Origin: a virus
Direction: 5' to 3' (one strand)
Length of the DNA: 55,764 nt
IMG/VR virus record: IMGVR_UViG_3300033402_000018
Below the pieces are notes generated by a model. The model was given only the letters and a program-made list of their open reading frames with translations, did not search any database and was not told the DNA's origin. The position numbers and the translations under genes are program-made. This document shows, piece after piece, positions 1,480 to 36,233 of the stretch; the stretch's first letter is position 1, and every line of letters starts with the position of its first letter.

Positions 1480-2190
1480 ATGGCTTGGTTTGACCAAATC
1501 TCGATGTCGCAAATTAGCCACAGACTGTTTGTCAGTGGTTACGCTCCTGCCGCTGAGTTGGCAAAGGAAAATCCTCATAAAATCACTGCCGTTCTCTGTG
1601 TCCATCAAGTCATGGACTACGACCAGAACCCCAACATCATCTACATGCACGTGCCATTTGACGACGGATCACCCATCCCGCCGCGTCAGTTTGTAAAGTG
1701 CCTTGGTTGGTTGAAGTTCATGTGGGAGAACGGGCACACAATTCTTGTCCATTGCGCCGCTGGCATCTCGCGATCAGTCACGATCATGGCGTCGTTCATG
1801 CACTACGAAGGCATTTGCGATTTTGAAACAGCACTTGACCGAATCCGCATGGCCCGTCCGGTCGCATCTCCTGCCGCAGCCGTATCGAACTCCGCAAAGC
1901 AGATGCTTGGCGTATATCCTTACGATGGCTCAATGGTGCCGGAGCATGAACGCACCATGCACGAACTTATCGAACGCGTGCAGAATCAACGCGCCGCACA
2001 TGCGCACCCGGATGAGAACTGCCCGATGCGCCAGTTTTTACTAGGCGATCAAGAAGACAACAGACCGCGCTACGAAATCCCATGCACCTGCGAGAAGCTG
2101 CTGAATCCAATAGAGTACGCGCAGCAGAAAGAAAAAAATATCATCGTTGTTGCTGATCCCGGCATCATACTAACAGATGACGAGGGGTGA
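1480..2190 (+). CDS. dual-specificity protein phosphatase
   Basis: Active-site HCAAGISRS (CX5R P-loop) preceded by a D-containing loop; 236 aa. Confidence 0.8.
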   Translation: MAWFDQISMSQISHRLFVSGYAPAAELAKENPHKITAVLCVHQVMDYDQNPNIIYMHVPFDDGSPIPPRQFVKCLGWLKFMWENGHTILVHCAAGISRSVTIMASFMHYEGICDFETALDRIRMARPVASPAAAVSNSAKQMLGVYPYDGSMVPEHERTMHELIERVQNQRAAHAHPDENCPMRQFLLGDQEDNRPRYEIPCTCEKLLNPIEYAQQKEKNIIVVADPGIILTDDEG

Positions 2191-2819
2191 GTATGGAGCG
2201 GGTCTTAAACGATGCCTTGGAGCTTGAAGGGATTGCCCAAGGGCACCAAGACGACATCCGTGCCTACCTCAAAATCCTGCGCAACCGGGATCAGTCAACC
2301 TACGAGCATTCCATTCGAGTAGGGATACTCGCCAGTAAGATTGCCATCTATGCCGCCAAGCCGGGGGTTAGCGCACGCATGATGCTGTGGGCTGGCTTCC
2401 TGCATGACATCGGCAAGGTGCTGGTGCCGCCCGGAGTTCTTACTAAGAAATCTCACTTTACCGCTGACGATTACGCCGCGATGGAGCCGCACGTCAAGTA
2501 CGGCTGGGACATGCTCACCGAAGTTCACGATTACACCGCACACATCCTCGTCCGGCATCACCAGTATGGCTCCAAGCCCTACCCTAAAGAACTGCCAGCG
2601 CTGCCGGAGCACCTACAGGCTCGCGCTGAAGTGGTGGACAATGCCGCACGCCTATTGGCGCTCGCGGACTACTACGATGCTCTCATGCACCGGAACAACG
2701 ACAAAAACGGTGCGAAGCCGCTATCCGGCAAAGAGAAGCGGGAAATCTACATGCGGGACAACGCCGATCAGAAAGACCTGATCGAGCTTCTTGAGTCCGT
2801 GGGTGTGCTAAAATTCTAG
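2187..2819 (+). CDS. HD-domain phosphohydrolase (HD-GYP-like)
   Basis: H...HD metal-binding motif (HSIRV...FLHDIGK) and downstream HHQYGSKPYP resembling the HHExxDGxGYP region; ATGA overlap with upstream gene. Confidence 0.65.
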   Translation: MSMERVLNDALELEGIAQGHQDDIRAYLKILRNRDQSTYEHSIRVGILASKIAIYAAKPGVSARMMLWAGFLHDIGKVLVPPGVLTKKSHFTADDYAAMEPHVKYGWDMLTEVHDYTAHILVRHHQYGSKPYPKELPALPEHLQARAEVVDNAARLLALADYYDALMHRNNDKNGAKPLSGKEKREIYMRDNADQKDLIELLESVGVLKF

Positions 2820-2826
2820 TAGACTC

Positions 2827-3384
2827 ATGAAAATCAAAGACTTAAAGCTACACGCTTTCTGGAAACGGTTTTTCCGCCGCCTTAGTAGGGGATTGGGCGT
2901 GCCGAAGAAGATTGCAGCGACAGAGGTAAAAGCACCGGGAAAATACGAAGCTGGTAAGCGGTACACCATCTTTCTCGCCGGAGCCATCGACCAAGGTAAA
3001 GCGGTGGACTGGCAGCAGAAAGTCGCCCGCGCTCTGGACGAACTGGACATTCTGATCCTGAATCCGCGCAGAGAGAATTGGGACCCAAGCTGGGATCAAT
3101 CCGCAGACAATCCTGAATTCAGGCAGCAGGTAAATTGGGAACTTGACGCACAGGCGGCCGCTGATATGGTGATTTTCGTGTTCACCAAGGACAGCAAGGC
3201 ACCGATCACGTTCTTGGAATTCGGTCTGTTCGCCCCAACCAAAGACGCCGTGGTCTGCGCTGAAGAAGGCTTCTACCGCAAGGGAAATCTTGACATCGTA
3301 GCTGAGCGCTACCACATTCCAATGTATGACAATTTGGATGAGATGATCGGTGACTTGAAGACGGTGCTTGGGGAGAAAGCATGA
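2827..3384 (+). CDS. nucleoside 2-deoxyribosyltransferase-like protein
   Basis: N-terminal YTIFLAGAIDQG Rossmann-like motif typical of the NDT/RCL family; 185 aa. Confidence 0.45.
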   Translation: MKIKDLKLHAFWKRFFRRLSRGLGVPKKIAATEVKAPGKYEAGKRYTIFLAGAIDQGKAVDWQQKVARALDELDILILNPRRENWDPSWDQSADNPEFRQQVNWELDAQAAADMVIFVFTKDSKAPITFLEFGLFAPTKDAVVCAEEGFYRKGNLDIVAERYHIPMYDNLDEMIGDLKTVLGEKA

Positions 3385-3716
3385 GCCAGACAGTTTACGT
3401 GCTAACGACCTTGATGGGGGAAAACCCGAAGCTGCCGAAAGAGTGGCGTCCTGTTGGCGTGGTAACAAGCCTCGACATCGCTGAGCAATGGGTCGCGCAC
3501 GGCGGGAACAACGATTGGATTCCGTTTGAGATTGACGATACCAGTTTGACCGGATTAAGCGACAACCCTTCAGTGTTTAAGCCCGCGCCGCCTACGCCGA
3601 ACGAAGAGAAGCTGGAAAAGGCCAACCAGCAATTGCAAGGCGTGATTCAGACGCTTCAGAAGCGACTCGAAAAGAAAAAGCCAAAGGCTTCCCTTTTGAA
3701 CAAGAAACGGAGATAA
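3381..3716 (+). CDS. hypothetical protein
   Basis: ORF of 111 aa with ATGA overlap; basic C-terminus. Confidence 0.4.
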   Translation: MSQTVYVLTTLMGENPKLPKEWRPVGVVTSLDIAEQWVAHGGNNDWIPFEIDDTSLTGLSDNPSVFKPAPPTPNEEKLEKANQQLQGVIQTLQKRLEKKKPKASLLNKKRR

Positions 3717-3722
3717 TAGGGT

Positions 3723-4046
3723 ATGGTCACATTGACACCCGGAGCGGTAAAGAAAGTCAAGGAAATCATGGAGCAGCAAGACCCGAAGCCAGCCGCACTG
3801 CGTCTTGGCGTTATTGGCGGCGGATGCTCCGGCTTTCAGTATTCTATGCAGTTCGAGAATGAGAAGGGCATGATGGACAAGTCCTTCGAGTTCGACGGTC
3901 TTACGTTGATCGTTGACGCTACATCGTACATGTATCTCGACGGCTGCGAAGTTGATTACCTTGAGACGCTCGAAGCCAGCGGCTTCAAGTTCAACAACCC
4001 GAACGTGAAAAGCACCTGTGGGTGCGGTCAGAGCTTCAACGCATGA
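3723..4046 (+). CDS. iscA: A-type Fe-S cluster carrier protein (IscA/ErpA/HesB family)
   Basis: 107 aa with conserved C at GGGCSGF and C-terminal CGCGQSF motif (three-Cys signature of IscA/ErpA). Confidence 0.85.
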   Translation: MVTLTPGAVKKVKEIMEQQDPKPAALRLGVIGGGCSGFQYSMQFENEKGMMDKSFEFDGLTLIVDATSYMYLDGCEVDYLETLEASGFKFNNPNVKSTCGCGQSFNA

Positions 4047-4219
4047 GCGAAGAGAATTTTGATTTCGCATTGGACTCATGGACTATCACGCCTGAAGAAG
4101 GCGAAAGAATTGCCCGTGATTTGCAACGACAGTATATCGAAGATCACATTAGGCAGTTCGGGGGCGTCACCCTGCTTTGCCTGCGGCCCAAGAAAGATGA
4201 AACCAATGATGGATTGTAA
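4043..4219 (+). CDS. small acidic hypothetical protein
   Basis: ATG overlapping the iscA stop (ATGA); 58 aa. Confidence 0.3.
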   Translation: MSEENFDFALDSWTITPEEGERIARDLQRQYIEDHIRQFGGVTLLCLRPKKDETNDGL

Positions 4220-4552
4220 ACCCAAGCCGAAGAGAGACGGTGGTAAGTCGGAACCGTCTTCGCGGCACGTTCCGCGACGATCCACCGAACTACGACAAGC
4301 CGATCTATGACCGTGATGGTAACCAGATCGGTGTGATTTATGATGCGCCTCCCGCGCCGGGGCCGAGCGGATTATCATGATTTGTTGCTCAATTTGTAAA
4401 GAAATGGTCGTATCTAGTGTTGAAGACCTCCGTTTGAGCGAAACGTTGGTCAGGATACAAGACCACTACAAGACGCATTCTTGGCTGCGACGTAAGCTTC
4501 ACAGGCTACAAACGTTGCCAGCGACATTGCGGCTGAAGAGATTTCAAAAAAC

Positions 4553-4969
4553 ATGTACTCTGAAAAAGTAATCGACCACTACAACAACCCGCGTAATGTT
4601 GGCTCGCTGGACAAAGCATCGCCAGACGTGGGGACAGGTCTGGTTGGTGCGCCGGAGTGCGGCGACGTAATGAAGCTTCAGATCAAGGTGGAAAACAATG
4701 TCATTGTTGACGCTAAGTTCAAAACTTTTGGCTGCGGCAGTGCTATTGCTTCTAGCTCGCTCGCGACTGAATGGGTTAAAGGCAAGACAACTGATGAAGC
4801 CCTCGCCATTAAAAACACCGAGATCGTCAAAGAACTCGCCCTCCCACCTGTAAAGATTCACTGTTCAGTGCTCGCCGAAGACGCGATTCGCGCCGCGATT
4901 GCTGACTGGAAAAAGAAGCAAGATGCCGAAAAAGCCAAAGAAGAAAAAGCCCATCACGAAGCGCGATAA
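4553..4969 (+). CDS. iscU: Fe-S cluster assembly scaffold protein IscU/NifU-like
   Basis: MYSEKVIDHYNNPRNVGSL, GAPECGDVMKL, FKTFGCGSAIASSS, LPPVKIHCSVLAEDAI: three conserved Cys plus LPPVK motif. Confidence 0.9.
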   Translation: MYSEKVIDHYNNPRNVGSLDKASPDVGTGLVGAPECGDVMKLQIKVENNVIVDAKFKTFGCGSAIASSSLATEWVKGKTTDEALAIKNTEIVKELALPPVKIHCSVLAEDAIRAAIADWKKKQDAEKAKEEKAHHEAR

Positions 4970-5116
4970 CTTCGACCGCAACTACATGCGCCACATTGTG
5001 GAAGAAGAGGAAGAAACGCTGTTCAAACTTCTGCAAGAAGACAAGCCCACCAAATCCTAATTTCTCCAGTATTAAAGCCTTTAGTAGGCGGTATTCCGCC
5101 TTCGAAAGGAACGACT

Positions 5117-5503
5117 ATGTACAAAAGACCCGAAAGAAAGCATAAACCGAACACAGAAAAGTGCCCGTTCTGCGACAAAGATTTCAAACCAATTGATCCG
5201 TGGCGCGAATCACAATGCGTGCTCAACAAGCCGCTCTGGATGGTGATCCCACCCGGCGGCGTCCATCTCGAATGCCCGGTTCACCCCGAGGGACATCATG
5301 TCTTCGGCAGCCCGGTCATCTACATGGATTCTCCTATCCGTGTTCGTGAGAACAACTTACCTGACCCGTTAAACGCGCCGTGGTGCGAGTACGACCGCAC
5401 GAAGTATTCAGGCGGCTGCACCTACGATCACGATTCCAGCAAGGATTTGACGTTCGATTCCACCAAACCCTTCGGAACCACGACAGGCTCGAATTGGCGG
5501 TAA
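5117..5503 (+). CDS. hypothetical protein
   Basis: 128 aa ORF, Cys/His-containing N-terminus (CPFCDK). Confidence 0.4.
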   Translation: MYKRPERKHKPNTEKCPFCDKDFKPIDPWRESQCVLNKPLWMVIPPGGVHLECPVHPEGHHVFGSPVIYMDSPIRVRENNLPDPLNAPWCEYDRTKYSGGCTYDHDSSKDLTFDSTKPFGTTTGSNWR

Positions 5504-5524
5504 TCTAGGAAAATTTGGTATTAG

Positions 5525-6106
5525 GTGGGCATGAGTCAATATGATCGTGTCTACCTAGACCAATGCTACGCACTCGCCAAGAACAGCACATGTGTGAAGG
5601 CCAAAGTTGGCGCTCAAGTGCGCGGACCCTACGGCGACATGTCTGACCACCTGCTAGGTCAAGGTTTTAACCAATCCCCCAATCCTGAGTTTGCTGACTG
5701 CGGCAAGCTGTGCGCCGGGGGCATCCGCTGCGGCATTAAGTCCGGTACTCGCGCTGAACTCTGTTACGCCGTCCACGCGGAGCAATACGCACTACTTCAG
5801 GCCGGATCGCTCGCGAAAGGGGCCACGATCTATGTCGCTTCCTACGATGACAAAGGCGAGAAACGCCTGAAGAACGCTGAACTCCCGCTGGGGCACCCGA
5901 TGCACGGTTTCTACTGTTCGGTGTGTGCTAGGCTCATCTGGGCTGCGGGAATCGCACGTGTAGTGACGGACGGTGTAAAGGGCCCGGTTGTTCTCAGCCT
6001 GAATGACATCTGGAAGACCTCTTACGGCGTGGCGGACAGTATTGACAAGAAGTACAAATCCTGCGGTTGCGAAGTAGGCAATTGCATCTGTGATATTGAG
6101 ACCTAA
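5525..6106 (+). CDS. cytidine/deoxycytidylate deaminase-fold zinc-binding protein
   Basis: CYAVHAEQYALLQAG (H-A-E zinc/catalytic motif) and downstream YCSVCARLI (PCxxC motif). Confidence 0.55.
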   Translation: MGMSQYDRVYLDQCYALAKNSTCVKAKVGAQVRGPYGDMSDHLLGQGFNQSPNPEFADCGKLCAGGIRCGIKSGTRAELCYAVHAEQYALLQAGSLAKGATIYVASYDDKGEKRLKNAELPLGHPMHGFYCSVCARLIWAAGIARVVTDGVKGPVVLSLNDIWKTSYGVADSIDKKYKSCGCEVGNCICDIET

Positions 6107-6639
6107 TGTCAAACCTCGCTGAACTCAAAGACCTGCCCAAAGAGCGGAAGAAGTATGTCGTTGGCTTCTTGATTGATCCCACGTTGTCTAAGGTGGTGCT
6201 CGTGCGTAAGAACCGACCTGACTATCAACGCGGTCTGCTCAACGGCGTGGGCGGGAAAGTCGGAGACACGATCCTAGACGAAACCACGGAAGAGGCGATG
6301 GCCCGTGAGTTCCAAGAAGAGACGGGTGGGGTTGATCTCAACTGGCGGCGGTTCTTGCACATGATGACACCCCGGTCAGACCTGACATTTTTCTACGCCA
6401 TCGGCAATGTTCACTGTGTCCGAACACAGACCGACGAAGAAGTAGCGGTGTATGACATTTCCGATGTGATGGATCGCTGCGATACGATGCCCAATGTTCG
6501 CTGGTGCATTCAGATGGCACGCTCTATTGAGTTCGGTGAGCACGCGGATTACTTTGAAGTGGCTGAGATTTTGGAGACAGACTTACCAGCGAATTTTCAT
6601 TTCATCCCGGATGCAGCGCTTGAAAAAGAAGACCTATGA
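6106..6639 (+). CDS. NUDIX hydrolase
   Basis: Nudix box GGKVGDTILDETTEEAMAREFQEETG (GX5EX7REUXEEXGU). Confidence 0.8.
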   Translation: MSNLAELKDLPKERKKYVVGFLIDPTLSKVVLVRKNRPDYQRGLLNGVGGKVGDTILDETTEEAMAREFQEETGGVDLNWRRFLHMMTPRSDLTFFYAIGNVHCVRTQTDEEVAVYDISDVMDRCDTMPNVRWCIQMARSIEFGEHADYFEVAEILETDLPANFHFIPDAALEKEDL

Positions 6640-7574
6640 ACATTGAATCGAAACTGATACTTGCCAGCAAGAGCGAAGCAACAGGCATCACCCTTTACAC
6701 GTTTGTGCTCACGTACCCACGTGTCATCCTAGCTGAAGTAAACACGCATCGAATGCTCAGCCGCAACACCGCGTCATCTCGCGCTATTCCAGCCAAGAAA
6801 CAGCGGGAACGCGTGCTTACTGATCCGTTCGTGCCTGTCACAATTGGGGCGAATCAGAAAGGGATGCAGGCTGGTGAAGAGCTTGACGGCTGGCGTCGGT
6901 TTGTTGCGATCAACACGTGGAAACTTGCACGCTACCCAATGGTAGCGGCGTCGTGGGTACTCGACAAGGTTGGTGCGCACAAGCAAGTTGTGAACCGCAT
7001 TGTGGAGCCGTGGACGTTCACGCAGCAAGTTGTGACTTGCACCGACCTGAAGAATGTCTTCAAACTGCGCAACCACAAAGATGCAGAGCCACACTTTCAA
7101 ATCATCGCGAAACAGATGCAGATGCAAGCAGAGTGGGCCGAGAAATGGTTTAACACCCTTTCGTGGAACTCGGAGAACGCGCTTGACCGTAGATTAGAAA
7201 TCAACAACCAACTTGGTGTTGGTACTCTTCAGGTGCTAAAGCCGGGGGAGTGGCACATGCCGTTTGTTGATGAGAAGGACATCACAGACACAATCCTGAA
7301 CTCCATGCTGCATGACAGCACTGACGAATCCCTGAAGAAAATCAGCACAGCACGCTGCGCACGTGTCAGCTACTTTCTACCGGAGAGCGGCAAAAGGTCT
7401 GACCCTAAGCGTGACGTAGAGCTTTGCAATAAACTGTCCGGCTCCGGTCATTGGAGTCCGTTCGAGCACGTAGCCACGCCGACAAAAGAAGCGGATTACA
7501 TTGGCAATTTTAAGGGCTGGAAGCAGTATCGTAAAGAGTATCCGCAAGAGTCTGGAGGGGACCGTGGGAATTGA
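6636..7574 (+). CDS. thyX: flavin-dependent thymidylate synthase ThyX-like
   Basis: HRMLSRNTASSRA matches the ThyX RHRxxSxxxxSxR signature; size 312 aa. Confidence 0.6.
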   Translation: MNIESKLILASKSEATGITLYTFVLTYPRVILAEVNTHRMLSRNTASSRAIPAKKQRERVLTDPFVPVTIGANQKGMQAGEELDGWRRFVAINTWKLARYPMVAASWVLDKVGAHKQVVNRIVEPWTFTQQVVTCTDLKNVFKLRNHKDAEPHFQIIAKQMQMQAEWAEKWFNTLSWNSENALDRRLEINNQLGVGTLQVLKPGEWHMPFVDEKDITDTILNSMLHDSTDESLKKISTARCARVSYFLPESGKRSDPKRDVELCNKLSGSGHWSPFEHVATPTKEADYIGNFKGWKQYRKEYPQESGGDRGN

Positions 7575-7608
7575 AGGCTGGGGCAGATCATTTGGGGCGA
7601 TTCAAGCG

Positions 7609-8094
7609 ATGGAGAAACGCCTTGCGAAGCAGCGCGAGTGGGACATCTACTACCTGAACATGGCCCGTTACGTCTCCACGAAGTCGAAGGACCCAAGCAC
7701 GCAAACCGGAGCGTGCATCGTGCGCCCGGACAACTCTTTGTGTTCCATTGGCTTCAACGGCTTCCCCAAAGGCATGAATGACGCCCCGGAGCTTTACGCC
7801 AACCGTGATGTAAAGTATTCTCGCACAGTGCATTGCGAAGTCAATGCCGAAATCTTCACCAGAGAAGACCTGAAGGGGTTTACGCTTTACACGTGGCCTT
7901 TCTCATCTTGCGACCGTTGCGCGGTGACGATGATTCAGGCGGGAATTGCACGTTTTGTGTTTCCAACCATGCCGCCAGAGAAGGCGTCCCGTTGGGCTGA
8001 AAACATGGCGATAGCGCAAGGCTACATGCGGGAAGCTGGGCGGGAAGTGGTTGAGATACCGTATGAACAGATTCCCAAGGTTGTGCTAGAATAA
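7609..8094 (+). CDS. dCMP deaminase (ComEB-like)
   Basis: HCEVNAE and SCDRCAVTMIQAGI motifs (HAE / PCxxC); start placed at first ATG after upstream stop (alternative GTG ~7563). Confidence 0.7.
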   Translation: MEKRLAKQREWDIYYLNMARYVSTKSKDPSTQTGACIVRPDNSLCSIGFNGFPKGMNDAPELYANRDVKYSRTVHCEVNAEIFTREDLKGFTLYTWPFSSCDRCAVTMIQAGIARFVFPTMPPEKASRWAENMAIAQGYMREAGREVVEIPYEQIPKVVLE

Positions 8095-8099
8095 ACGAT

Positions 8100-9131
8100 A
8101 TGGCTAAAAAACAGGTTCGAACAACGCGTAAGGAAGATAAGCCGAGACCGTACAAGGTCGATTATTTCGAAGAGAACGAAATGATCGACAACGACAAGGC
8201 GTTGGTCCGTAGCCGTGTCGTCCGCGCCGTTACGTCTGCGCAGGCGTCCAATCTTGTGATGCTCGAAGATGGGTGGGAATCGCGTAACCGATTTATTGTT
8301 CGTGCGTCTCGCTTTTATGGGGAGTTGAAACAAGCGCAGGAAAACAAGTACGTCCCCGTTGAAGACCTGTTCCCTGAAAAGAAGGCACTCGATGTCATGG
8401 CGAACATCGAGGTTATCCGCGCCGCCGCTAAATCCCGTACAGCCGCTCCCGTAGCGCCAGCCACTCCAGTTGCATCAAGCAACACGTGCCGCTGGCATGG
8501 CGATCAGTACCTTGATGCTTCAGGTCGTTGCACGCGTCTTGACCCATCCTTCATGTCTGCGGTGTGCGCTCCGTCTGTGCCTACGTCGGGGCCGGACAGT
8601 CAGGCAACCAAGGATGTCATGGCGGATTTCAATGGCATGATGTCTCATGACGAGCACGAACAGAGAATGGACAACTTCGTGCCGGACATCACGCCGGGAC
8701 TAAGAACTTCACAGTACCAAGCCGCAACGGGAAACAAGACTCCAATCGTTCGGACAGCGGACGGGCAACTTGGTGTGCTTACTCCGAGCCTTTCGTTCCC
8801 CGACAAGCCAGTGGTGCCTACACAGCCAGCCGTGTTTGACGGTGACGAGCACCACATTGATCTGGACGAGTGCGCACCAGTGATTCATCCCGCGCCGGAC
8901 GCGGGCTGTTCATGTGAGCCGCACGGCGAGACTGATCCAAGCTGTGTGGAACACGGCATTACAGCGCCGCCGATTGACACAACGGGTCAGGTGCTCACAT
9001 CTATGGGTACTTCGGCTCCATGGCAAACCCCGGACGACCCGCTCCCTACGTGGGCGAAGGTGCTCCTATTCGGGGGTGCGGCATTCTTCGCAGTGGTGAT
9101 AGCACTCGCAGTCCTGAAGTGTGGACATTAA
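8100..9131 (+). CDS. hypothetical membrane-anchored protein (Ala/Pro/Thr-rich, C-terminal TM helix)
   Basis: 343 aa; C-terminal LLFGGAAFFAVVIALAVL hydrophobic helix. Confidence 0.5.
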   Translation: MAKKQVRTTRKEDKPRPYKVDYFEENEMIDNDKALVRSRVVRAVTSAQASNLVMLEDGWESRNRFIVRASRFYGELKQAQENKYVPVEDLFPEKKALDVMANIEVIRAAAKSRTAAPVAPATPVASSNTCRWHGDQYLDASGRCTRLDPSFMSAVCAPSVPTSGPDSQATKDVMADFNGMMSHDEHEQRMDNFVPDITPGLRTSQYQAATGNKTPIVRTADGQLGVLTPSLSFPDKPVVPTQPAVFDGDEHHIDLDECAPVIHPAPDAGCSCEPHGETDPSCVEHGITAPPIDTTGQVLTSMGTSAPWQTPDDPLPTWAKVLLFGGAAFFAVVIALAVLKCGH

Positions 9132-9219
9132 ACAAGTGGGTCAATGACCACTTGTTCGAGTTGGTAATTGCGTTGTTGGTTTTGCCCGTGGTTATTGCGT
9201 ATCTTTTCGGTCATCACTG

Positions 9220-9426
9220 ATGGAACAGCACTACTGCCAACGAATCCCAAAGCCGGGGCCAAACACGCTTTCTCTGACCTCCATAGAAGGCGACCCGGAC
9301 GCCTGTGGTAAGATCGCGCACTTCAAATACAGACCAGAGGACCCATACGATGTCTTTGAGCCGGACAAAGTTTGGTGGTTGTGTGCGGAGTGCTATGATT
9401 TTGCCATGATCTTCGACAAATTCTAA
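9220..9426 (+). CDS. hypothetical protein
   Basis: 68 aa ORF, CxxC motif. Confidence 0.35.
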   Translation: MEQHYCQRIPKPGPNTLSLTSIEGDPDACGKIAHFKYRPEDPYDVFEPDKVWWLCAECYDFAMIFDKF

Positions 9427-9460
9427 ATTTCTAAGATTCTAGCCCTCTTGTAGAGGGCAA

Positions 9461-10027
9461 ATGGTTTATTTCATCATCGAAGCATCGCATCTTTTCCGCG
9501 CCGGGACAAAGTATCAGACCCAGTTTTTCGTGATGGATGTTGTGAATTTCATCCATCGCAAGTTCAGGGGTTTCTGCTCCGGCTGCCCAGAGCCTTGCCC
9601 GGAAATGGTGCCACATGTGATTGTTCTTCACGGCTCTGTTAAGCAGGAACAGGGCGACCGCTATGCCGCCGCGCTCGAACGCCACGGCGTGAAGGTTGTG
9701 CGTATGCGCCCGATTGAGTCGGACAGCGCAGGCAAATGGTTTTTCAAGCCAGCTTGGTACATGCACAAAATGATGGGGACGGACATCCCTGAAGGCTCTG
9801 ATGTTGTTCTGGTGGGGTTTCACAATATCCGCTACCTAAAGTTCCTCGAAAAGTATGCCACTCGATACAACCTGCATGTGGCCGCCTTTCAAACGCCAAG
9901 CGCCAAGCAAGGGATGATGCACGTTCCTGATGAGTTTAAGCCATTACTCAAAAGCGTAATTGACCTTGACATGGATGTCCCCGGCATCAAAGCAGAGTTC
10001 AAGAAAAAGCTCAGTAATAAAGCTTGA
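9461..10027 (+). CDS. hypothetical protein
   Basis: 188 aa ORF following a hairpin; no clear motif. Confidence 0.5.
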   Translation: MVYFIIEASHLFRAGTKYQTQFFVMDVVNFIHRKFRGFCSGCPEPCPEMVPHVIVLHGSVKQEQGDRYAAALERHGVKVVRMRPIESDSAGKWFFKPAWYMHKMMGTDIPEGSDVVLVGFHNIRYLKFLEKYATRYNLHVAAFQTPSAKQGMMHVPDEFKPLLKSVIDLDMDVPGIKAEFKKKLSNKA

Positions 10028-10130
10028 GCGGTTCACGGGCCTAAAGCTTCGTTGGTTAGCACCCCCCGATCTTATGTTCGCTCGCCAGAAGACCGGGAGA
10101 AGATGCAACCCGTGGACCGTCAAGGACTCA

Positions 10131-10515
10131 ATGAACGCTAACGAATACCAGACGCTCGCTGAAGTTACCGAGAGCAAAGATTTTGAAGCAATCGGTAAAC
10201 GCATGTCAACCATCCGTAGCATCCGTCTTCTCCACGCGACAACTTGGCATTTCCAGCGAATGCGGTGAAGTCGCTGACGCACTCAAGAAGCATATCTTCT
10301 ACGGCAAGGAACTGGACGTAGTAAACGTTGCCGAAGAGATCGGCGATATTTGCTGGTATCTGGCGCTCGCTTGCAATGAGCTTGGTATGGCATTCGAGCA
10401 GGACATCTTGGAAGTCAACATCGCCAAGCTGAAGGCCCGTTACGGGGACAAGTTCTCCGAGCACGCGGCCATGCACCGTGACCTCAACAAGGAACGTGCT
10501 ATACTCGAAGGATGA
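10131..10515 (+). pseudogene. mazG: MazG-like nucleoside triphosphate pyrophosphohydrolase interrupted by an apparent +1 frameshift (~10240-10250)
   Basis: Frame 0 encodes MNANEYQTLAEV...IRLLHA (then stop); frame +1 continues LGISSECGEVADALKK...EEIGDICWYLALA...KLKARYGDKF. Fused, this reproduces the MazG RLLHAALGLAGEAGE / EELGDLLW motifs. AAGGA RBS before 10131. Confidence 0.6.
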
Positions 10516-12351: not shown

Positions 12352-13185
12352 ATGGCGAACAAACCCAGAACCGACTCGCTGGGTGACAGAATGAAGCGCT
12401 ACGAAGCAACCACGCGCTTCCTGTTGCCGCGCCGCACTTACACAATTCTTCGCGTTGATGGTCGTGCGTTCCACACGTGGACTCGCGGGCTTGACCGTCC
12501 CTATGACCGCAACTTCATGGCGTGCATGAACGAAGCCGCGCTCGAACTTTGCCAGCAGATCGCGGGAGCGCAGTTCGCTTACGTGCAGTCCGACGAAATC
12601 AGCCTGTTGGCTGTGGACTTCCTTGACATCAAAACCGAGCCGTGGTTTGAAGGCGGCGTGCAGAAATGGGCCAGCGTCGGCGCATCCATCGCAACGATGG
12701 CGTTCAACAATTGCTTGCTTCGGCTGAAGGGGGCAAACCTCGACGAGTCTGAGCTTAAGATCACCAAGAAGCTCCCGAACGCCACGTTCGACGCCCGCGT
12801 GTTCACCATCCCAGACTTGGTGGAAGTGGAAAATTATTTCGTGTGGCGGCAGCAGGATGCGGAACGCAACTCCGTCACAATGCTGGCGCAGAGCTACGCT
12901 TCCCACAAGCAACTCATGGGGAAAAATCGCGCCGCGCAGCATGAGATCATCCACAAAGCCGGGGACAATTGGGCGAAGCATCCTGTGCGTTTCAAGCATG
13001 GCGCTGTGATCCGCCGTGCCGCTGAAAACGAAGTCTGGACGGAAGTCGGCACCCATCATTTCAACTGGGTTGTGGACGAAGACACCCCAGCCTTCACCAA
13101 AGACCGCGCTTACATCCGTGGTCTGGTTCCTGTTGTTTGGGACAACGACCTTCTGGTCAGAAAGGCGGCAGCGAATGGAGAATAG
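12352..13185 (+). CDS. tRNA(His) guanylyltransferase Thg1-like protein (TLP)
   Basis: DRMKRYE, TILRVDGRAFHTWTRGL, FAYVQSDEISLL match the conserved Thg1 N-terminal palm-domain motifs. Confidence 0.7.
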   Translation: MANKPRTDSLGDRMKRYEATTRFLLPRRTYTILRVDGRAFHTWTRGLDRPYDRNFMACMNEAALELCQQIAGAQFAYVQSDEISLLAVDFLDIKTEPWFEGGVQKWASVGASIATMAFNNCLLRLKGANLDESELKITKKLPNATFDARVFTIPDLVEVENYFVWRQQDAERNSVTMLAQSYASHKQLMGKNRAAQHEIIHKAGDNWAKHPVRFKHGAVIRRAAENEVWTEVGTHHFNWVVDEDTPAFTKDRAYIRGLVPVVWDNDLLVRKAAANGE

Positions 13186-19854: not shown

Positions 19855-21417
19855 ATGATGACACCGCAGGAAGAACGAATTCTCAACGCGGCACGCCAAA
19901 AGATCGAAGAGCAGCAGGAATTGCTCAGACGCCTGACCGCCCCAGCCTACCACCTTGGGATCGTCTGCGGTGTGTATCCGAAGACCGTGGTTGTGGACAC
20001 AGGTTCCCAACTCTTTGAGCTTGACCGCATCGAAGGCGGACCAGACATCAAGGTTGGTCAGGGCGTTGACATTCATCCGCAGACCGGGCAGATCGCCAAA
20101 GTTTCAGACTTCGTTTCCTACGGAAGCACCGGGACGGTATCGCAGATCGACGGCAACATCATCCAGATCAGTGTTCCGTCCGGCCTCATCACCACCGAAT
20201 ATTCGCTCATCCCGGTAAGCATCGGCGACAAGATCGTGATGAACAGCACGAACCACGTCATCATGAAGAAGCTGCCGACCGCGTCGAAGTATGCCTTCAA
20301 GACGAGCGCCGTGCTGGACTGGAAAGACATCGGCGCTTGCGAAGACGCGAAAAAAGAACTTATCGCCGCGCTCGAAACGCCTTACACCGCATCGCCGCTG
20401 TTCAAATTCTTCAACAAGGATCAGATCAAAGGCGCACTACTTTGGGGACGCCCCGGCAACGGCAAGACTTTGCTTGGACGAGCCGCCGCTGGCGCACTGG
20501 CGCGTATGCACGGCGTGGAAGCTAGGGACTCAGGCTTTATCTACATCAAGGGGCCAGAAATCCTTGACAAGTACGTTGGCGAAACTGAATCTCAGATTCG
20601 CGAAGCTTTCGCCTATGCCAAAGCGCACTTCAAGAAACACGGCTATCCGGCTGTCATGTTCGTGGACGAAGCGGACGCCGTAATGATGCGCCGTGGTTCG
20701 CGCACCGCATCCGGCATGGAAATGACCATCGTCCCGCAGTTCCTTTCTGAGATGGACGGCATCGAAGACAGCGGCGTGTTCGTGCTGCTGGCTACCAACC
20801 GTGCGGATACGCTCGATCCGGCAATCATTCGTCCCGGTCGCTGCGACCGCCGCGTCCATGTGGCACCACCCAACAAGCTCAACGCCCCGGAGATTTGGGA
20901 CATTCACATGCGCAAAGTGCCTGTAACTAACGGCGTGAGCAAAGAACAGTTGATCCAGAGCGTGAATGACACGCTGTTCAGCGAGCAATTTCCGCTCTAT
21001 TTGATTGACACGCCCAACGGACGCAAGACGTTCAGCCTTGGGAATCTTGTGTCAGGCGCTATGATCGCGGGAGCCGTGGAACGGGCATCAGCCATTGGCA
21101 TTGACCGTAATCTCATGGCCCTGTGCGGCACAACTCAGCCGACGCAGGATCAGCTTGCAAAGGTTGACCCAAAGAAATTTGACGGTCTCTCGCAAGGGGA
21201 CTTCACCGCCGCGCTTGCCGCCATGCACAAAGAGCAGTACGGCATGAACCATTTCGATGAACTGCGTGAGTTTATCGACATGCAGAAGCTCGAAGTCACG
21301 TCCATTGAGCAATGCCACGATGGGCAAAAGATCGAACGCCCGAAGCCGCAGCCGCGCAAGGAACCAGAGATCATCGGTGTTATTCCAATGCCGACAGGGA
21401 AGAAGTTCGACGCATAA
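19855..21417 (+). CDS. proteasome-associated ATPase family AAA+ protein (Mpa/ARC/PAN-like)
   Basis: N-terminal coiled coil then OB-like region (YHLGIVCGVYPKTVVVDTGSQLFEL). Walker A GRPGNGKT. ARC-specific insertion FIYIKGPEILDKYVGETESQIR (compare Mpa [22 protein letters not shown]). Walker B VMFVDEAD. TIVPQFLSEMDGIE...LLATNRADTLDPAIIRPGRCDRRVHV (compare Mpa TVVPQLLSEIDGVE...ASNREDMIDPAILRPGRLD). Confidence 0.8.
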   Translation: MMTPQEERILNAARQKIEEQQELLRRLTAPAYHLGIVCGVYPKTVVVDTGSQLFELDRIEGGPDIKVGQGVDIHPQTGQIAKVSDFVSYGSTGTVSQIDGNIIQISVPSGLITTEYSLIPVSIGDKIVMNSTNHVIMKKLPTASKYAFKTSAVLDWKDIGACEDAKKELIAALETPYTASPLFKFFNKDQIKGALLWGRPGNGKTLLGRAAAGALARMHGVEARDSGFIYIKGPEILDKYVGETESQIREAFAYAKAHFKKHGYPAVMFVDEADAVMMRRGSRTASGMEMTIVPQFLSEMDGIEDSGVFVLLATNRADTLDPAIIRPGRCDRRVHVAPPNKLNAPEIWDIHMRKVPVTNGVSKEQLIQSVNDTLFSEQFPLYLIDTPNGRKTFSLGNLVSGAMIAGAVERASAIGIDRNLMALCGTTQPTQDQLAKVDPKKFDGLSQGDFTAALAAMHKEQYGMNHFDELREFIDMQKLEVTSIEQCHDGQKIERPKPQPRKEPEIIGVIPMPTGKKFDA

Positions 21418-27506: not shown

Positions 27507-29327
27507 ATGCACATCAAACCGCAAGCAAAGATCGCTCTGGTAGTTGTTCTGGTTCTGGGCGTAGTCTTCGGACTCCGCACCGCCGCAGAGCATGGATTGA
27601 TCCCAACCCCCGGCATCATGAAGGCGTTGGTGCCTCAGAAGGCTGTCCTGCCTGATGTAAAGGATGCTCAAGTTCAGAACGTCGCCCCTGTAGCCCTCCC
27701 GCAAGACTCCCCGGCTAACGTTCAAGCCACGCCGATTCGTGGCGCGATCTGGGAATGGAACGCTCAGATGGGCATGATCTTCGCCAACGGCGGCGCAACC
27801 ACGACCGCTGGTTCGTTGATGGCGAAGCGCAACGTCAACCTGATTCTGTATCGTCAGGACGACACCAGCAAGATGCAAGAAGACCTGATCGCTTGCGCCA
27901 AGGAACTGCATGACGGCAATCCGTCTTGCTCGAACGGTGCAAACTTCGTGGTCATCATGGGAGACGGCGCTGGTCAGTTTGCCGCCGCAGTCAACCCGCA
28001 GCTTGCTAAGCTGGGCCCGCAATATCTCGTGAAGGTCATCGCCGCCACTGGTTACAGCCGTGGTGAAGATGCTTTCATGGCTCCCCCGGACGTGAAGAAG
28101 AGTCCCGCCGCTGCGAAGGGACTTCTGGTTGAAGGCGTGCTCCGCGATGGCGACTGGAATATTGCCATGAAGTGGGCTGCTGACAACAACATCCCCAACA
28201 ACCCGGACGAGAAGACCTACGACGCCAACGCTCTCAACTGGATTAACGCGCCGGACTACAATACCGCCGCGTCTGATTACGTTGCTGGCAAGTGCGAAGA
28301 CCGCAAGGTCGTAAAAGACGGTCACCCGACTGGCGAAACGAAGCACGTCTGCGTCAATGCGGTCGTGACTTGGACTCCCGGCGACGTGACGGCTGCTACT
28401 CAAAAGGGCGGCTTGGTCAAGGTGGTTTCGTCCAAGCAGTACCGTTCGCAGATGCCCGCTGTGGTCCTTGGCCCCGGCAAGTTCTTCGCCGACAATCGTG
28501 ACGAAGTAACCAACATGATCGCTGCCATCTTTGAAGGTGGAGATCAGGTTAAGGCGTTTGACACGTCTCTGCGCAAGGCTGCGGTCATTTCGACCAAGGT
28601 CTACAATGACGAAGGCGATCAGACTTCGCACAACGGCGATTTCTGGTATCGCTACTTCAAGGGCGTCCCGTACAAGGATCAGACCACGGGCGCGACTGTT
28701 GAGCTTGGCGGCTCCGCAGTGAACAACCTTGATGACAACCTCATCCTGTTCGGCTTGAAGCCCGGAACCAACGACAACTTCCGCAGCACCTACACGGTGT
28801 TTGCCAACATCGACGTTCAACAGTATCCGCAGTTGTTCAAAGAGACGCCGATTCCAGACGTGAAGTTGGTCGAAGACAAGTCTTACATCACCGGAGCACA
28901 GGCTGTTCTGTCCGGCGAAGGTGACACTGGTTCTGAAGCCAGCGCTCCGGCTTACGAGCAGGAAGCCAGCGGCGAGACCGTTTCCAGCCGCTCGTACAAC
29001 ATCAACTTCCAAACGGGAAGTGGGCAGCTTACGCCGCAAGGCGAACAGCAGCTTCGCGATCTGAAAGATGGTCTGGCAATCACCGGACTGTTCATTCAGG
29101 TGGACGGATACACCGACAACACTGGCTCTGATAGCGTTAACATCCCGCTGTCTCAGGCTCGTGCGGAGTCCGTGCGCAACTTCCTGCAACGCAACTATCC
29201 CGGCAACTTCCCGAACAAACGGTTCGCGGTCGCCGGACATGGTTCGCAGAACCCAATCGCGTCGAACGCCACGGCGGACGGTAAAGCTCAGAACCGCCGC
29301 GTGACGATCACGTTGAAAGGCAACTAA
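27507..29327 (+). CDS. large exported/membrane-anchored protein with C-terminal OmpA-like peptidoglycan-binding domain; N-terminal portion possibly a solute-binding domain
   Basis: N-terminal signal anchor; C-terminus VDGYTDNTGSDSVNIPLSQARAESVRNFL...AVAGHGSQNPIASN...NRRVTITLK matches the OmpA/MotB C-domain consensus; followed by intrinsic terminator. Confidence 0.65.
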   Translation: MHIKPQAKIALVVVLVLGVVFGLRTAAEHGLIPTPGIMKALVPQKAVLPDVKDAQVQNVAPVALPQDSPANVQATPIRGAIWEWNAQMGMIFANGGATTTAGSLMAKRNVNLILYRQDDTSKMQEDLIACAKELHDGNPSCSNGANFVVIMGDGAGQFAAAVNPQLAKLGPQYLVKVIAATGYSRGEDAFMAPPDVKKSPAAAKGLLVEGVLRDGDWNIAMKWAADNNIPNNPDEKTYDANALNWINAPDYNTAASDYVAGKCEDRKVVKDGHPTGETKHVCVNAVVTWTPGDVTAATQKGGLVKVVSSKQYRSQMPAVVLGPGKFFADNRDEVTNMIAAIFEGGDQVKAFDTSLRKAAVISTKVYNDEGDQTSHNGDFWYRYFKGVPYKDQTTGATVELGGSAVNNLDDNLILFGLKPGTNDNFRSTYTVFANIDVQQYPQLFKETPIPDVKLVEDKSYITGAQAVLSGEGDTGSEASAPAYEQEASGETVSSRSYNINFQTGSGQLTPQGEQQLRDLKDGLAITGLFIQVDGYTDNTGSDSVNIPLSQARAESVRNFLQRNYPGNFPNKRFAVAGHGSQNPIASNATADGKAQNRRVTITLKGN

Positions 29328-29351
29328 GAGTCGTACCCCGTTCATTCGGCT

Positions 29352-29390
29352 GGGCAGGGATGAAATATTCCCTGCCCTTTTTTATTTTTT
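29352..29390 (+). terminator. intrinsic terminator after OmpA-domain gene
   Basis: GGCAGGGA-TGAAATAT-TCCCTGCC hairpin followed by CTTTTTTATTTTTTC. Confidence 0.7.
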
Positions 29391-29405
29391 CTGCATCTAA
29401 GAGAC

Positions 29406-29621
29406 ATGAGACCGAAACCAGCAGACGTTGAATTGAAGATCGCTGAGAGTGTCGGCTGGTACATTGACGTAACTAACGAAGAGAAGTGGCTGGTGCGTGA
29501 CGGCGGCGTGAATCAATGGGTCGGCCCCGGCGCAGCTACGGACGCGGAACTGAAATTGTGGGTTCTGCTGCTGACCAAGATTGTGACGAAAGAAGCCAAG
29601 GAATTTTTGGAGAGCCTGTAA
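29406..29621 (+). CDS. hypothetical protein
   Basis: 71 aa ORF after terminator. Confidence 0.35.
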   Translation: MRPKPADVELKIAESVGWYIDVTNEEKWLVRDGGVNQWVGPGAATDAELKLWVLLLTKIVTKEAKEFLESL

Positions 29622-30406
29622 TGAGTGAGTTCATTTCCGCTTACACACCGAACAAACCCACCAAGGTATCCACGGTCAAGATGCTGATCGCTAGCTATGC
29701 CGCGTTCTTCTTCGTGTTCTGGTTCTTCTCGCCGTTCCCGTTCCTGCCTTCAATCGGTGAAACATGGGCAGCGTGGGTTGAGCAGTGGGGGCAAGGCTTA
29801 GGCGGGGAACTCATTACTAGCTTCGAAGCCAACTTGCAAGCTATCGCTCTTTCTTCTCTCATCTCGCTGGGACTTGCCTATTTGACAGTGCTCGCCGGAT
29901 TCCGTCCAATCGTCACGTTCCTGTCCAAGCTACGCTTCCTTTCAATGGTCGGCTTGAGCTTTTTCTTCACGGTTGCCACGAAGACACAGCACCAACTCAA
30001 GATCAGCTTGTTGGTGTTCAGCATCAGTGTGTTCTTCGTGACCGGGATGGCTGACGTGATCGAGTCAATTCCGAAAGAACAGTATGATCTTGCACGCACG
30101 CTGCGCATGGGGCCGTGGCGCACCGTCTGGGAAGTAGTAGTGCTGGGTCAAATTGACAAGGCGTTTGATGTGCTGCGCCAGAACGCCGCCATCGGATGGA
30201 TGATGCTTACGATGATTGAAAGCATGGTTCGTTCCGAAGGCGGCATTGGCGCTATGCTCACCACCGCGAACAAACACTTTTACCTTAACGCAGTCTTTGC
30301 CATCCAGATCACCATTCTGTTGATGGGGTTGGGGCAGGACTACTTGATCGGCGCATCGAAGAAGCTCTTCTGTCCGTATGCCGCGCTGGGATCGGAGCGC
30401 AAGTGA
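29621..30406 (+). CDS. ABC transporter permease (NitT/TauT-type binding-protein-dependent inner-membrane component)
   Basis: Six hydrophobic segments; EAA-like loop KEQYDLARTLRMGPWRTVWEVVVLG; TAATG overlap start. Confidence 0.75.
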   Translation: MSEFISAYTPNKPTKVSTVKMLIASYAAFFFVFWFFSPFPFLPSIGETWAAWVEQWGQGLGGELITSFEANLQAIALSSLISLGLAYLTVLAGFRPIVTFLSKLRFLSMVGLSFFFTVATKTQHQLKISLLVFSISVFFVTGMADVIESIPKEQYDLARTLRMGPWRTVWEVVVLGQIDKAFDVLRQNAAIGWMMLTMIESMVRSEGGIGAMLTTANKHFYLNAVFAIQITILLMGLGQDYLIGASKKLFCPYAALGSERK

Positions 30407-30798
30407 AGAACCTTGAAGGATACGCGCTGATAGCGCTCGTGCTGTTCACATTGTTCACATTGTTCACCATTGGCTGCGGAAGCACGCCTCCTGTATGGAC
30501 AGCCTATACTGCGGAAGCTGTGTACCTGAACGAACCCGGCTCCGTGTCAATTCTGATGCGTAACGAAGATAACAGTCTTTCGGTGAAAAAGTTTTATGTC
30601 AGTACCGATGCACTGATTATCAAAGACGACATCGTTGATTCCCGCGCACATCCATGGGTGAGTGTTGAGCAAGAGAGTGAGATGGGCGACTTGGTGACTA
30701 CCAAAATCACAGTCCACGTTCACAGCATCAAAGAAATCCAGCCCGGACACTGGAACCACGGAAAGTTCGGACAGGGACAAGATCAGCAGATAGAATAG
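30403..30798 (+). CDS. lipoprotein
   Basis: Signal peptide with lipobox TIGCGS. Confidence 0.5.
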   Translation: MKNLEGYALIALVLFTLFTLFTIGCGSTPPVWTAYTAEAVYLNEPGSVSILMRNEDNSLSVKKFYVSTDALIIKDDIVDSRAHPWVSVEQESEMGDLVTTKITVHVHSIKEIQPGHWNHGKFGQGQDQQIE

Positions 30799-30807
30799 GG
30801 GAAGACA

Positions 30808-31263
30808 ATGGGCTTCATATTTGGGATAGTGGTTGGGATTTGCCTTGCGGCGCTTATAGGGCATTGCTGGCAGGAAGACGGCTGTGACCACACATGGAAA
30901 GTCACCGCTGCGCATCAGATGATGCTCGTACACACCATCCACGGCGTTACCATTGGGGAGCCGGATGATGGGCAACCAGTCACCGAAGTGCTTTCTCGCT
31001 GCACCGTCTGCGGGGAAACGGTCACCGAAGAACTCTCAGGTCACTGGACTTACGAGCAGCTATCCGGTGAGCCGGATGCGTCCGGGGAAAACACAACTTT
31101 TTGGCGAACGGCGAAAAAGCCGGAGCCGGAGCAAACCGATATTTTTTGGCGAACGGCGAAAAAGCCGGAGCCGGAGCAAACCGATGATCGAAGTGGGACA
31201 GGAAGTGACGCGCTGGCTGGCGGGGACAATCCCGATGCAGCTAAAAGTGACAGCGGTAACTGA
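30808..31263 (+). CDS. hypothetical membrane-anchored protein containing a 15-aa tandem repeat
   Basis: N-terminal TM helix; FWRTAKKPEPEQTDI / FWRTAKKPEPEQTDD from a perfect 45-bp tandem duplication; 3-prime end uncertain. Confidence 0.4.
   Translation: MGFIFGIVVGICLAALIGHCWQEDGCDHTWKVTAAHQMMLVHTIHGVTIGEPDDGQPVTEVLSRCTVCGETVTEELSGHWTYEQLSGEPDASGENTTFWRTAKKPEPEQTDIFWRTAKKPEPEQTDDRSGTGSDALAGGDNPDAAKSDSGN
31101..31190 (+). repeat. perfect 45-bp tandem duplication (2 copies)
   Basis: TTGGCGAACGGCGAAAAAGCCGGAGCCGGAGCAAACCGAT repeated with period 45. Confidence 0.8.
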
Positions 31264-31447
31264 AGACCGAATCATCTGCGGCGACTACGAGTTCGACAAA
31301 CGGACTGGCGCTGAGATTGATGACTTCATGGGATTCGGGCCGGACTTCACAGGCAGCTACATCAAGGTTCCCGGCGTGAACTATGTTCAGGCTTCTGATG
31401 AAGAAGCACTGGCACGTCTCGAACAAATCGGCAAGAAAGGCGAATGA
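31184..31447 (+). CDS. hypothetical protein
   Basis: MIEVGQEVTRW... in alternative frame beginning inside the duplicated segment; overlaps the previous call. Confidence 0.35.
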   Translation: MIEVGQEVTRWLAGTIPMQLKVTAVTEDRIICGDYEFDKRTGAEIDDFMGFGPDFTGSYIKVPGVNYVQASDEEALARLEQIGKKGE

Positions 31448-31597
31448 TATGAATGCCGCGATCAAAGAAGTTATCGAGAAGCACGTCTGGGCGTATGGGC
31501 CTAACCGCAAAGGCTGCGTTATGTTCATGACGGATGGCGTCAGGGAAGTAGCCAACGAACTTGAAATCAGCTATCGGGCGGCGGAAGAGCTTGTCCG

Positions 31598-32891: not shown

Positions 32892-33152
32892 ATGGCATAC
32901 GTCATTGCAGAGCCGTGTATCGGCGTCAAAGACACAGCATGTGTCGATGCGTGTCCAGTGGATTGCATTCACCCCAAAAAAGGCACACCTGAGTTCGAGA
33001 AAGAGCCGCAGCTTTACATTGATCCCGTAGAGTGCATCGACTGCGGCGCTTGCGTCCCGGTTTGCCCAACGGCCGCAATTTTCCCGGTGGACGATTTGCC
33101 CGAACAGTGGAAGAAATTCACCGAGATCAACGCCAAGTATTTTGGAAGGTAA
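32892..33152 (+). CDS. 2x[4Fe-4S] ferredoxin
   Basis: CIGVKDTACVDACP and CIDCGACVPVCP cluster motifs; 86 aa. Confidence 0.8.
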   Translation: MAYVIAEPCIGVKDTACVDACPVDCIHPKKGTPEFEKEPQLYIDPVECIDCGACVPVCPTAAIFPVDDLPEQWKKFTEINAKYFGR

Positions 33153-35638: not shown

Positions 35639-35728
35639 GGTGAGTTGGGAGAGTGGTTGATTCCGCTGGTTTGCTAAACCAGAGCACCCGAAAGGGTGCC
35701 ACAGGTTCGAATCCTGTACTCACCGCCA
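35639..35728 (+). tRNA. tRNA-Ser (anticodon GCU)
   Basis: Manual fold: acceptor GGTGAGT/ACTCACC, 3-bp D stem, anticodon stem CTGGT/ACCAG with loop TTGCTAA, long variable hairpin, T arm ACAGG-TTCGAAT-CCTGT, discriminator G, encoded CCA. Confidence 0.75.
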
Positions 35729-35729
35729 T

Positions 35730-36122: not shown

Positions 36123-36127
36123 AGTTT

Positions 36128-36213: not shown

Positions 36214-36233
36214 AATTTGCGGCTGTTAAATTT

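Follow-up and report, generated by a model that had tools for sequence, protein, structure and literature searches.

The 55,764-nucleotide stretch of the IMG/VR record IMGVR_UViG_3300033402_000018, the whole of which is referred to here as the window, encodes two proteins of iron-sulfur (Fe-S) cluster biogenesis, the scaffold IscU and an A-type carrier that resembles ErpA, within a gene context of phage type. The reading that we favor, to which we assign a probability of roughly 0.72, is that the window belongs to the early/metabolic region of a large uncultured phage and that the two host-derived Fe-S genes form a conserved module in this phage lineage. The pair consists of:

3723..4046, plus strand: A-type Fe-S cluster carrier, ErpA-like, 107 amino acids (PF01521, TIGR00049, NF010147)
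4553..4969, plus strand: IscU Fe-S cluster assembly scaffold, 138 amino acids (TIGR01999, PF01592, phrog_8429)

An earlier interpretation of this DNA, the sequence-only reading, had reported an Fe-S biogenesis pair, an IscA-type carrier and an IscU scaffold, on a mobile element, and the open reading frames (ORFs) lie exactly at the coordinates that it gave, on the plus strand. Both the scaffold and the A-type carrier are genuine, but the carrier is ErpA-like and not the operon-type IscA.

Profile matches and an alignment identify the scaffold, and the family assignments of both proteins lie well outside chance expectation. In a Pfam profile search IscU is matched by PF01592 (NifU_N) with E=8e-53 and 178.4 bits against a cut-off of 22; it also passes the NCBI equivalog cut-off of TIGR01999 (216.3 bits against 192.4) and matches phrog_8429 with E=1.2e-40. 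Residue-by-residue alignment with human ISCU (6UXE; E=5.7e-64) recovers the conserved motifs APECGD, FGCGSAIASSS and LPPVKIHCS, with Cys36, Asp38, the GCGS of the Cys61/62 region, LPPVK and the His-Cys pair all in place and the three ligand cysteines complete. LPPVK is the HscA-binding motif, and the aspartate that follows the first cysteine of IscU labilises the cluster. By these scores and motifs, 4553-4969 encodes a full Isc-type scaffold with all signature residues. The carrier, in turn, is matched in Pfam by PF01521 (Fe-S_biosyn; E=8.8e-22) and lies above the A-type cut-off (TIGR00049, 126.6 bits against 58.8). Its ligand cysteines, located in GGGCSG and in the C-terminal CGCG (STCGCG) with the spacing C-x~63-C-G-C, align with those of H. 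influenzae HI1723, Aquifex and E. coli IscA. The profile scores and alignments bear out the complete signature cysteines claimed for both proteins, and the profile searches return an IscU equivalog and an A-type carrier with intact cysteines, not the non-Isc family with missing cysteines that had been named as the contrary case.

With respect to the type of carrier, the top equivalog model is that of ErpA (NF010147), which scores 112.4 bits; as this is just under the cut-off of 117, we call the protein ErpA-like and not ErpA. Both IscA equivalogs stay below their cut-offs (TIGR02011, 96.6 bits against 150.6; NF007049, 88.2 against 181), and the IscA and SufA models taken together give 82-97 bits against cut-offs of 136-181. 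The closest cellular homologue, with 77% identity, is a stand-alone 127-residue gene product on a 1.6-Mb bacterial contig, whereas identity to the in-operon IscA of an Acidobacteria metagenome-assembled genome (MAG) is only 44%; together with the IscA scores, these values rule out the operon-type IscA label. On this evidence the carrier would be an ErpA-like stand-alone paralogue in origin, and an ErpA-like function is predicted. The likeness to ErpA, the essential A-type carrier of E. coli, extends to the best solved relative (HI1723, 2APN), to the stand-alone position of the closest cellular homologue, as in erpA, and to the three retained cysteine ligands. Apart from the sub-threshold score, the phage protein differs in that it lacks the N-terminal extension of ~20 residues found in the cellular long forms. 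In a neighbor-joining tree, carriers of 104-111 residues group apart from the cellular forms of 120-130 residues, which include the long-form protein P0214. Of the best 120 clusters at 90% identity, about 70 belong to this short-form group, and both of the two randomly sampled members sit in a phage block syntenic with that of the window, so that the short-form clade looks largely phage-borne and diverse.

The remaining components of a bacterial ISC system are not encoded in the window. Searched by tblastn with all eight proteins of an acidobacterial isc operon, the window yielded only IscU and the carrier, and no homologues of IscS, HscB, HscA, Fdx, IscR or IscX; Pfam scans of about 100 window ORFs detected no desulfurase, Hsp70/J-protein or [2Fe-2S] ferredoxin. 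Thus, the lack of HscB, HscA and IscS noted previously is confirmed across the window, where a complete ISC system with co-encoded IscS, HscB, HscA and Fdx is not found. Moreover, none of 41 viral carrier loci from IMG/VR encodes IscS, HscB, HscA, Fdx, IscR or IscX, and IscU is present in 21 of these 41. Because the other ISC components are absent, the pair would have to use the machinery of the host. The bacterial system (iscRSUA-hscBA-fdx-iscX) is represented here by an Acidobacteria MAG (GCA_016196065.1, locus L054) in which the order is iscR-iscS-iscU-iscA-hscB-hscA-fdx-iscX. The phage IscU is 91% identical to the IscU of this operon and retains all its motifs; in contrast to the operon, the phage has only the scaffold, without IscR, IscS, the in-operon IscA, HscB, HscA, Fdx or IscX, and places the carrier before the scaffold with ~500 nt of phage-specific small ORFs in between.

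As for the source of these genes, IscU shares 87-93% identity with proteins annotated as the IscU of Terriglobales, Ca. Sulfotelmatobacter or Acidobacteria; the closest named relatives of the carrier are Acidobacteriota (P0214 is so named by its source); and the homologues of a ferredoxin encoded elsewhere in the window, 76-91% identical to it, include proteins from Acidobacteriota MAGs. Given the resemblance of all three proteins to acidobacterial ones, the host is most likely an acidobacterium, probably Terriglobales-like. By the same kind of comparison, the two genes appear to derive from different host loci, IscU from the isc operon and the carrier from a stand-alone gene apart from it. 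The nucleotide identity of the phage genes to the host genes is 69-75%. Compared with the diverged relative L010, both window genes show nonsynonymous divergence (pN) of 0.09-0.10 and synonymous divergence (pS) of at least 0.76, which is saturated, and the same values are obtained against the host genes; with pS saturated and pN at about 0.1, purifying selection keeps both genes. Furthermore, the GC content at third codon positions (GC3) of IscU shifts from 0.755 in the host to 0.54 in the window and 0.41 in the lower-GC relative L014. Both genes are thus best regarded, from their sequence divergence, as old residents of phage genomes and not as recent captures, pseudogenes or assembly chimeras. 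The neighbor-joining tree of IscU is too flat for a count of acquisitions, with identities of 0.82-0.94 among phage proteins and 0.85-0.93 between phage and cellular ones.

The phage setting is indicated by the organization of the window and by its relatives. Genes are densely packed in the window; essentially all are on the plus strand and most are ORFans. A five-tRNA array and a nucleotide-metabolism block, both listed below, and the phage homologues of its ThyX-like protein add to the phage context. When 25 kb of the window was compared with 50,697 phage records by megablast, no match was obtained, and relatives were found through proteins. At least 8 metagenome contigs, the longest of 128 kb, encode an identical IscU protein with the same neighbors; they come from several ENA/JGI samples. 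Diverged relatives share the block DSPc-HD-NDT-p111-carrier-(small ORFs)-IscU-...-ThyX-dCMP deaminase, where NDT is nucleoside 2-deoxyribosyltransferase; it is present in L010/L011/L013, which correspond to the 463-kb IMG/VR viral contig IMGVR_UViG_3300033405_000001, and in L014 (102 kb), L057 and L058 (119 kb). The arrangement p111-carrier-small ORFs-IscU-p128 is seen again in no fewer than five other diverged relatives; L017 has the adjacent carrier-IscU pair only, and L016 (170 kb) has p111 and the carrier, with no IscU within 6 kb. With respect to classification as auxiliary metabolic genes, the pair has surroundings of phage type on either side, matches in PHROG and relatives in IMG/VR, in a window devoid of capsid and terminase genes. 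PHROG families exist for all three Fe-S proteins of the window (phrog_8429, phrog_17776 and phrog_8732), and phrog_8429 ('NifU-like Fe-S cluster assembly protein') is itself filed under auxiliary metabolic genes. The proposed mobile-element setting is therefore supported in the form of a phage-like genome, and that the element is a phage is a strong inference, not a demonstration. In the window, the ORFs that flank and separate the two Fe-S genes are the following:

3381..3716, plus strand: p111, 111 amino acids, no assigned function, homologues directly upstream of the carrier in relatives
4043..4219, plus strand: s58, 58 amino acids, no assigned function, its ATG overlapping the carrier stop codon (ATGA)
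4197..4380, plus strand: s60, small ORF (60 amino acids when intact), interrupted in the window by an additional T at 4259
4377..4571, plus strand: s64, 64-residue Cys-containing ORF, no assigned function, overlapping the preceding stop codon and the IscU start
5117..5503, plus strand: p128, 128 amino acids with 6 cysteines, no assigned function, conserved downstream of IscU

The two flanking proteins have no match in Pfam or NCBIfam. All relatives examined retain p111; in L010, L014, L016, L057 and L058 the gene next to the carrier on its upstream side encodes a homologue (35-51% identity). Downstream of the module, L010, L016, L057 and L058 each encode a homologue of p128 (37-69% identity); a single-sequence AlphaFold2 model of p128 was uninformative (predicted local distance difference test score, pLDDT, 34). 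The interval between the two Fe-S genes measures 506 nt and, in agreement with the previous description of about 500 bp with only small unassigned ORFs, is occupied by s58, s60 and s64, which likewise lack family matches in Pfam and NCBIfam and are each conserved in at least one diverged relative. Specifically, s58 shares 49% identity with its positional counterpart in L010/L013, and a full HMMER search among 1.84 billion representatives found only three genuine relatives (a match to a eukaryotic zinc-finger repeat protein was discarded as spurious); intact s60 has a counterpart of 81% identity in L057; and a counterpart of s64 in L057, 49% identical and in the same position, also ends over the IscU start. 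The T at 4259 is extra relative to three otherwise identical contigs (L004, L005 and L007) in which s60 is intact, and is either an assembly error or a real population variant. The set of small ORFs varies among relatives, with none in L014 and L058 and three in L010 and L057. A scan for promoters and terminators across 2000-6200 yielded sites in numbers no higher than in shuffled sequences, and none on the plus strand in the interval, so that no separate transcription unit is evident between the carrier and IscU; Rfam detects tRNAs only and thus gives no sign of a regulatory RNA there. The overlapping stops and starts, along with the lack of promoter or terminator signals above background, fit a single transcription unit with translational coupling.

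Two relatives carry additional cargo at this locus. In L010 (6860-8008; also in L011 and L013), p111 has a counterpart that is joined to a nicotianamine-synthase-like domain (PF03059) and whose ORF overlaps the carrier start; this fusion may be a metallophore synthase beside the Fe-S module. In L058, a TonB C-terminal domain protein (6352-7095, minus strand) is inserted immediately after IscU. Such iron-related cargo hints that the locus could serve the iron economy of the phage more broadly.

The third Fe-S protein of the window is encoded far from the pair:

32892..33152, plus strand: 7Fe ([3Fe-4S][4Fe-4S]) ferredoxin, 86 amino acids, typed by alignment to solved 7Fe ferredoxins

The sequence-only reading placed a ferredoxin at these coordinates, which is correct, and described it as a 2x[4Fe-4S] protein, which does not hold. 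The clostridial type, with two CxxCxxCxxxCP motifs, is rejected given that the protein has only one; its cysteines follow the pattern C9-x7-C17-x3-C21P, then C48xxC51xxC54xxxC58P, such that the first motif is C-x7-C-x3-CP. The best solved relatives, those of Thermus thermophilus (1H98; E=5.7e-25), Bacillus schlegelii (1BC6) and Mycobacterium smegmatis FdxA (2V2K), are all 7Fe ferredoxins that share the ligand pattern and the overall sequence. Apart from 8 residues (PKKGTPEF) inserted behind the first motif, the window protein aligns with them over its whole length; it further differs in being phage-encoded and in falling short of the FdxA equivalog cut-offs (FdxA_Actino NF045480, 100 bits against 125). 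It matches phrog_8732. By its motifs and homology it is thus of the [3Fe-4S][4Fe-4S] type and not a 2x[4Fe-4S] protein. Directly upstream of it (27507-32497) are genes for a 606-residue OmpA-domain protein, an ABC permease (29516-30406) and an ABC ATPase (31598-32497). The permease has a weak NitT/TauT-like (nitrate/sulfonate-type) match and the ATPase a generic one, both too weak or generic to assign a substrate, and a role of this transporter in iron or sulfur import is therefore unsupported.

Given the intact LPPVK motif and the identity of about 90% to host IscU, we propose that the phage scaffold plugs into the host IscS, Fdx and HscBA. Phage IscU would be loaded with sulfur by host IscS and supplied with electrons by host Fdx, and host HscA and HscB would unload it through LPPVK; the ErpA-like carrier would then take up the cluster and insert [4Fe-4S] into apo-proteins, the clients being the phage 7Fe ferredoxin and/or other Fe-S proteins of the phage or the host. 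Carriers of the ErpA type work at the final step, the one that faces the clients. Given what is established about IscU and A-type carriers, the pair would cover the entry (scaffold) and the exit (ErpA-type carrier) of the ISC pathway, with the net effect of extra scaffold and last-step carrier capacity during infection, when host expression is likely shut down and the demand for, or damage to, Fe-S clusters is likely to be high. The earlier suggestion that the element boosts host Fe-S supply or serves its own Fe-S proteins thus remains the most reasonable one, although no Fe-S enzyme beyond the ferredoxin was recognized in the window. The accompanying idea of redox partners associated with ThyX has no basis: ThyX chemistry uses FAD/NADPH, and the match of the ThyX-like ORF is weak (41 bits against a cut-off of 87.9).

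Several observations weigh against this interpretation. With no capsid or terminase gene in the window, the designation as a phage relies on context and on relatives. The host is assigned from protein similarity alone. Neither radical SAM proteins nor members of other Fe-S enzyme families were found in the window or the roughly 15 kb of flanking sequence covered, which makes the ferredoxin the only recognizable putative Fe-S client in the window, and the ferredoxin gene is 28 kb from the pair and not obviously co-regulated with it. Finally, extra IscU without extra IscS might not raise the flux if sulfur delivery is limiting.

The pair could, alternatively, be a dedicated supply that mainly matures Fe-S proteins of the phage, such as the ferredoxin, Cys-rich proteins or enzymes encoded elsewhere in a genome of more than 128 kb, without adding to host capacity. 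This is unlikely in our estimation, even though a 7Fe ferredoxin is encoded in the same genome, many small Cys-rich ORFs are present in the window and ErpA-type carriers are established to work next to the clients. Marine viral genomes with a carrier or IscU also encode Fe-S proteins of the radical SAM and Cas4 families (PMC5332604). The Cys-rich ORFs of the window, however, mostly look like 2xCxxC zinc ribbons, and L016 keeps the carrier with no IscU nearby; the failure to detect Fe-S enzyme families and the distance of the ferredoxin, which count against the preferred reading, tell against this one as well.

Distinctly unlikely, but of interest for the proteins without assigned function, is the extension of the module to a phage-specific iron/Fe-S unit in which p111, p128 and the small coupled ORFs join the carrier and IscU as new accessory factors. 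They might act as adaptors that replace HscB/HscA, as routers of clusters to phage clients or as links to iron acquisition; the last of these is hinted at by the PF03059 fusion of L010 and the TonB gene of L058.

We consider it very unlikely that the phage takes over host regulation, with excess IscU and carrier titrating IscS, IscR or iron and so rewiring IscR/Fur-type regulation, sulfur trafficking (e.g., tRNA thiolation) or iron availability, or else buffering iron and reactive oxygen species, without a rise in cluster output. In line with this possibility, the phage supplies only an IscS-binding scaffold and a carrier, with neither sulfur donor nor chaperones, its relatives have the iron-related cargo described above, and activation of E. 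coli Fur by [2Fe-2S] is reported to require IscU (PMC11001641). There is no direct evidence for it, however, and the catalytic and transfer residues, including the cluster-labilising aspartate and LPPVK, are all retained under a constraint as strong as that on IscU in cells, which argues against a mere decoy, for which they would not be needed.

That the window is a host fragment, a chimeric assembly or a chromosomal island mistaken for a mobile element is highly improbable: the close similarity to cellular Acidobacteria proteins and the lack of capsid and terminase genes are outweighed by the independent assembly of the same arrangement in at least 8 contigs from several samples and its presence in diverged relatives including IMG/VR viral contigs, by the one-strand ORFan and phage-type genes on both sides, by a carrier-then-IscU order and partners unlike those of the host operon, and by the limited nucleotide identity to host genes and the shifted GC3.

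The interpretation of the pair as a phage module of host origin is consistent with what is known of viral Fe-S genes. Nishimura et al. (2017; PMC5332604) described 16 marine viral genomes, of which 14 encode an A-type carrier and 6 encode IscU. The authors, who refer to previous virome studies that reported sufA and iscU among auxiliary genes, likewise interpret the viral carrier and IscU genes as boosting or securing Fe-S supply. Viral 'nifU' has also been described in soils (a 2026 study, PMC13149639). The present finding is well supported and of an already known type, inasmuch as viral IscU and A-type carrier genes have been catalogued and the marine genes, phrog_8429 and the soil nifU, borne on genomes of tailed phages, share with the window a host-derived IscU and/or carrier and the lack of IscS and HscBA. 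In contrast to the marine cases, which are assigned to Gammaproteobacteria/SAR86, the likely host here belongs to Acidobacteriota; moreover, the window differs from the known viral cases in that it belongs to a large phage lineage with relatives of up to 463 kb, in that its carrier appears to stem from a stand-alone ErpA-like paralogue, and in that the pair is embedded in a conserved block together with p111, p128 and small ORFs that vary among relatives. Among other phages, Phage C48C1 (a Kyanoviridae genome) encodes an IscU with 73% identity, and two huge-phage assemblies encode A-type carriers. Many database matches to 'phage' IscU or IscA were set aside, being bacterial contigs filed as phage: Acinetobacter phage MD-2021a and entries for Salmonella, Escherichia and Staphylococcus have iscU together with iscA in seemingly chromosomal contigs. 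Database matches for 'phage IscU' need checks of context.

These results extend auxiliary genes known mostly from marine viromes to diverse large phages of, probably, Acidobacteria, an abundant soil phylum that is virologically little known. The phages take only the first (scaffold) and the last (ErpA-like carrier) components of ISC, apparently from two separate host loci, which suggests that the scaffold and carrier steps could limit Fe-S supply during infection. Furthermore, the near-host identity of the three proteins provides a host prediction for the phage lineage. The current understanding of Fe-S biogenesis itself is unchanged.

The remaining recognizable content of the window, along with a SprT-like protein, includes:

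1480-10515: nucleotide-metabolism block with a DSPc phosphatase, HD, nucleoside 2-deoxyribosyltransferase, two dCMP deaminases, NUDIX, ThyX-like and MazG proteins
12352-13185: Thg1-like tRNA-His guanylyltransferase
19855-21417: AAA ATPase, 520 amino acids
22275-24353: NAD-dependent DNA ligase, full-length (adenylation, OB, Zn-finger and BRCT domains)
35639-36311, plus strand: five-tRNA array, Ser(GCT), Ser(CGA), Ser(GGA), Ser(TGA) and Leu(TAA), three of which are confirmed by Rfam
about 37505-37768: PTH2 peptidyl-tRNA hydrolase
50013-52460: 815-residue protein with a Major Vault Protein shoulder domain (E=3.3e-26) and Vault_3 repeats

Among 69 window ORFs a match to the N-terminal domain of dATP/dGTP diphosphohydrolase was also obtained, and the nucleotide-metabolism genes, taken together, may point to modified DNA bases; homologues of the ThyX-like protein occur in 1034 phage records. 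The vault-like protein has no match in PHROG or NCBIfam, and exact-protein look-ups of this protein and of the ligase returned no match, for which differences in start calls are the probable cause. A 902-residue ORF matches only the 440-kb Salicola phage SCTP-2. The tRNA array holds four serine isoacceptors consecutively, and a HisRS-like fragment of 155 residues just beyond the downstream end of the window (L055, 14240-14707) adds to the translation-related cargo.

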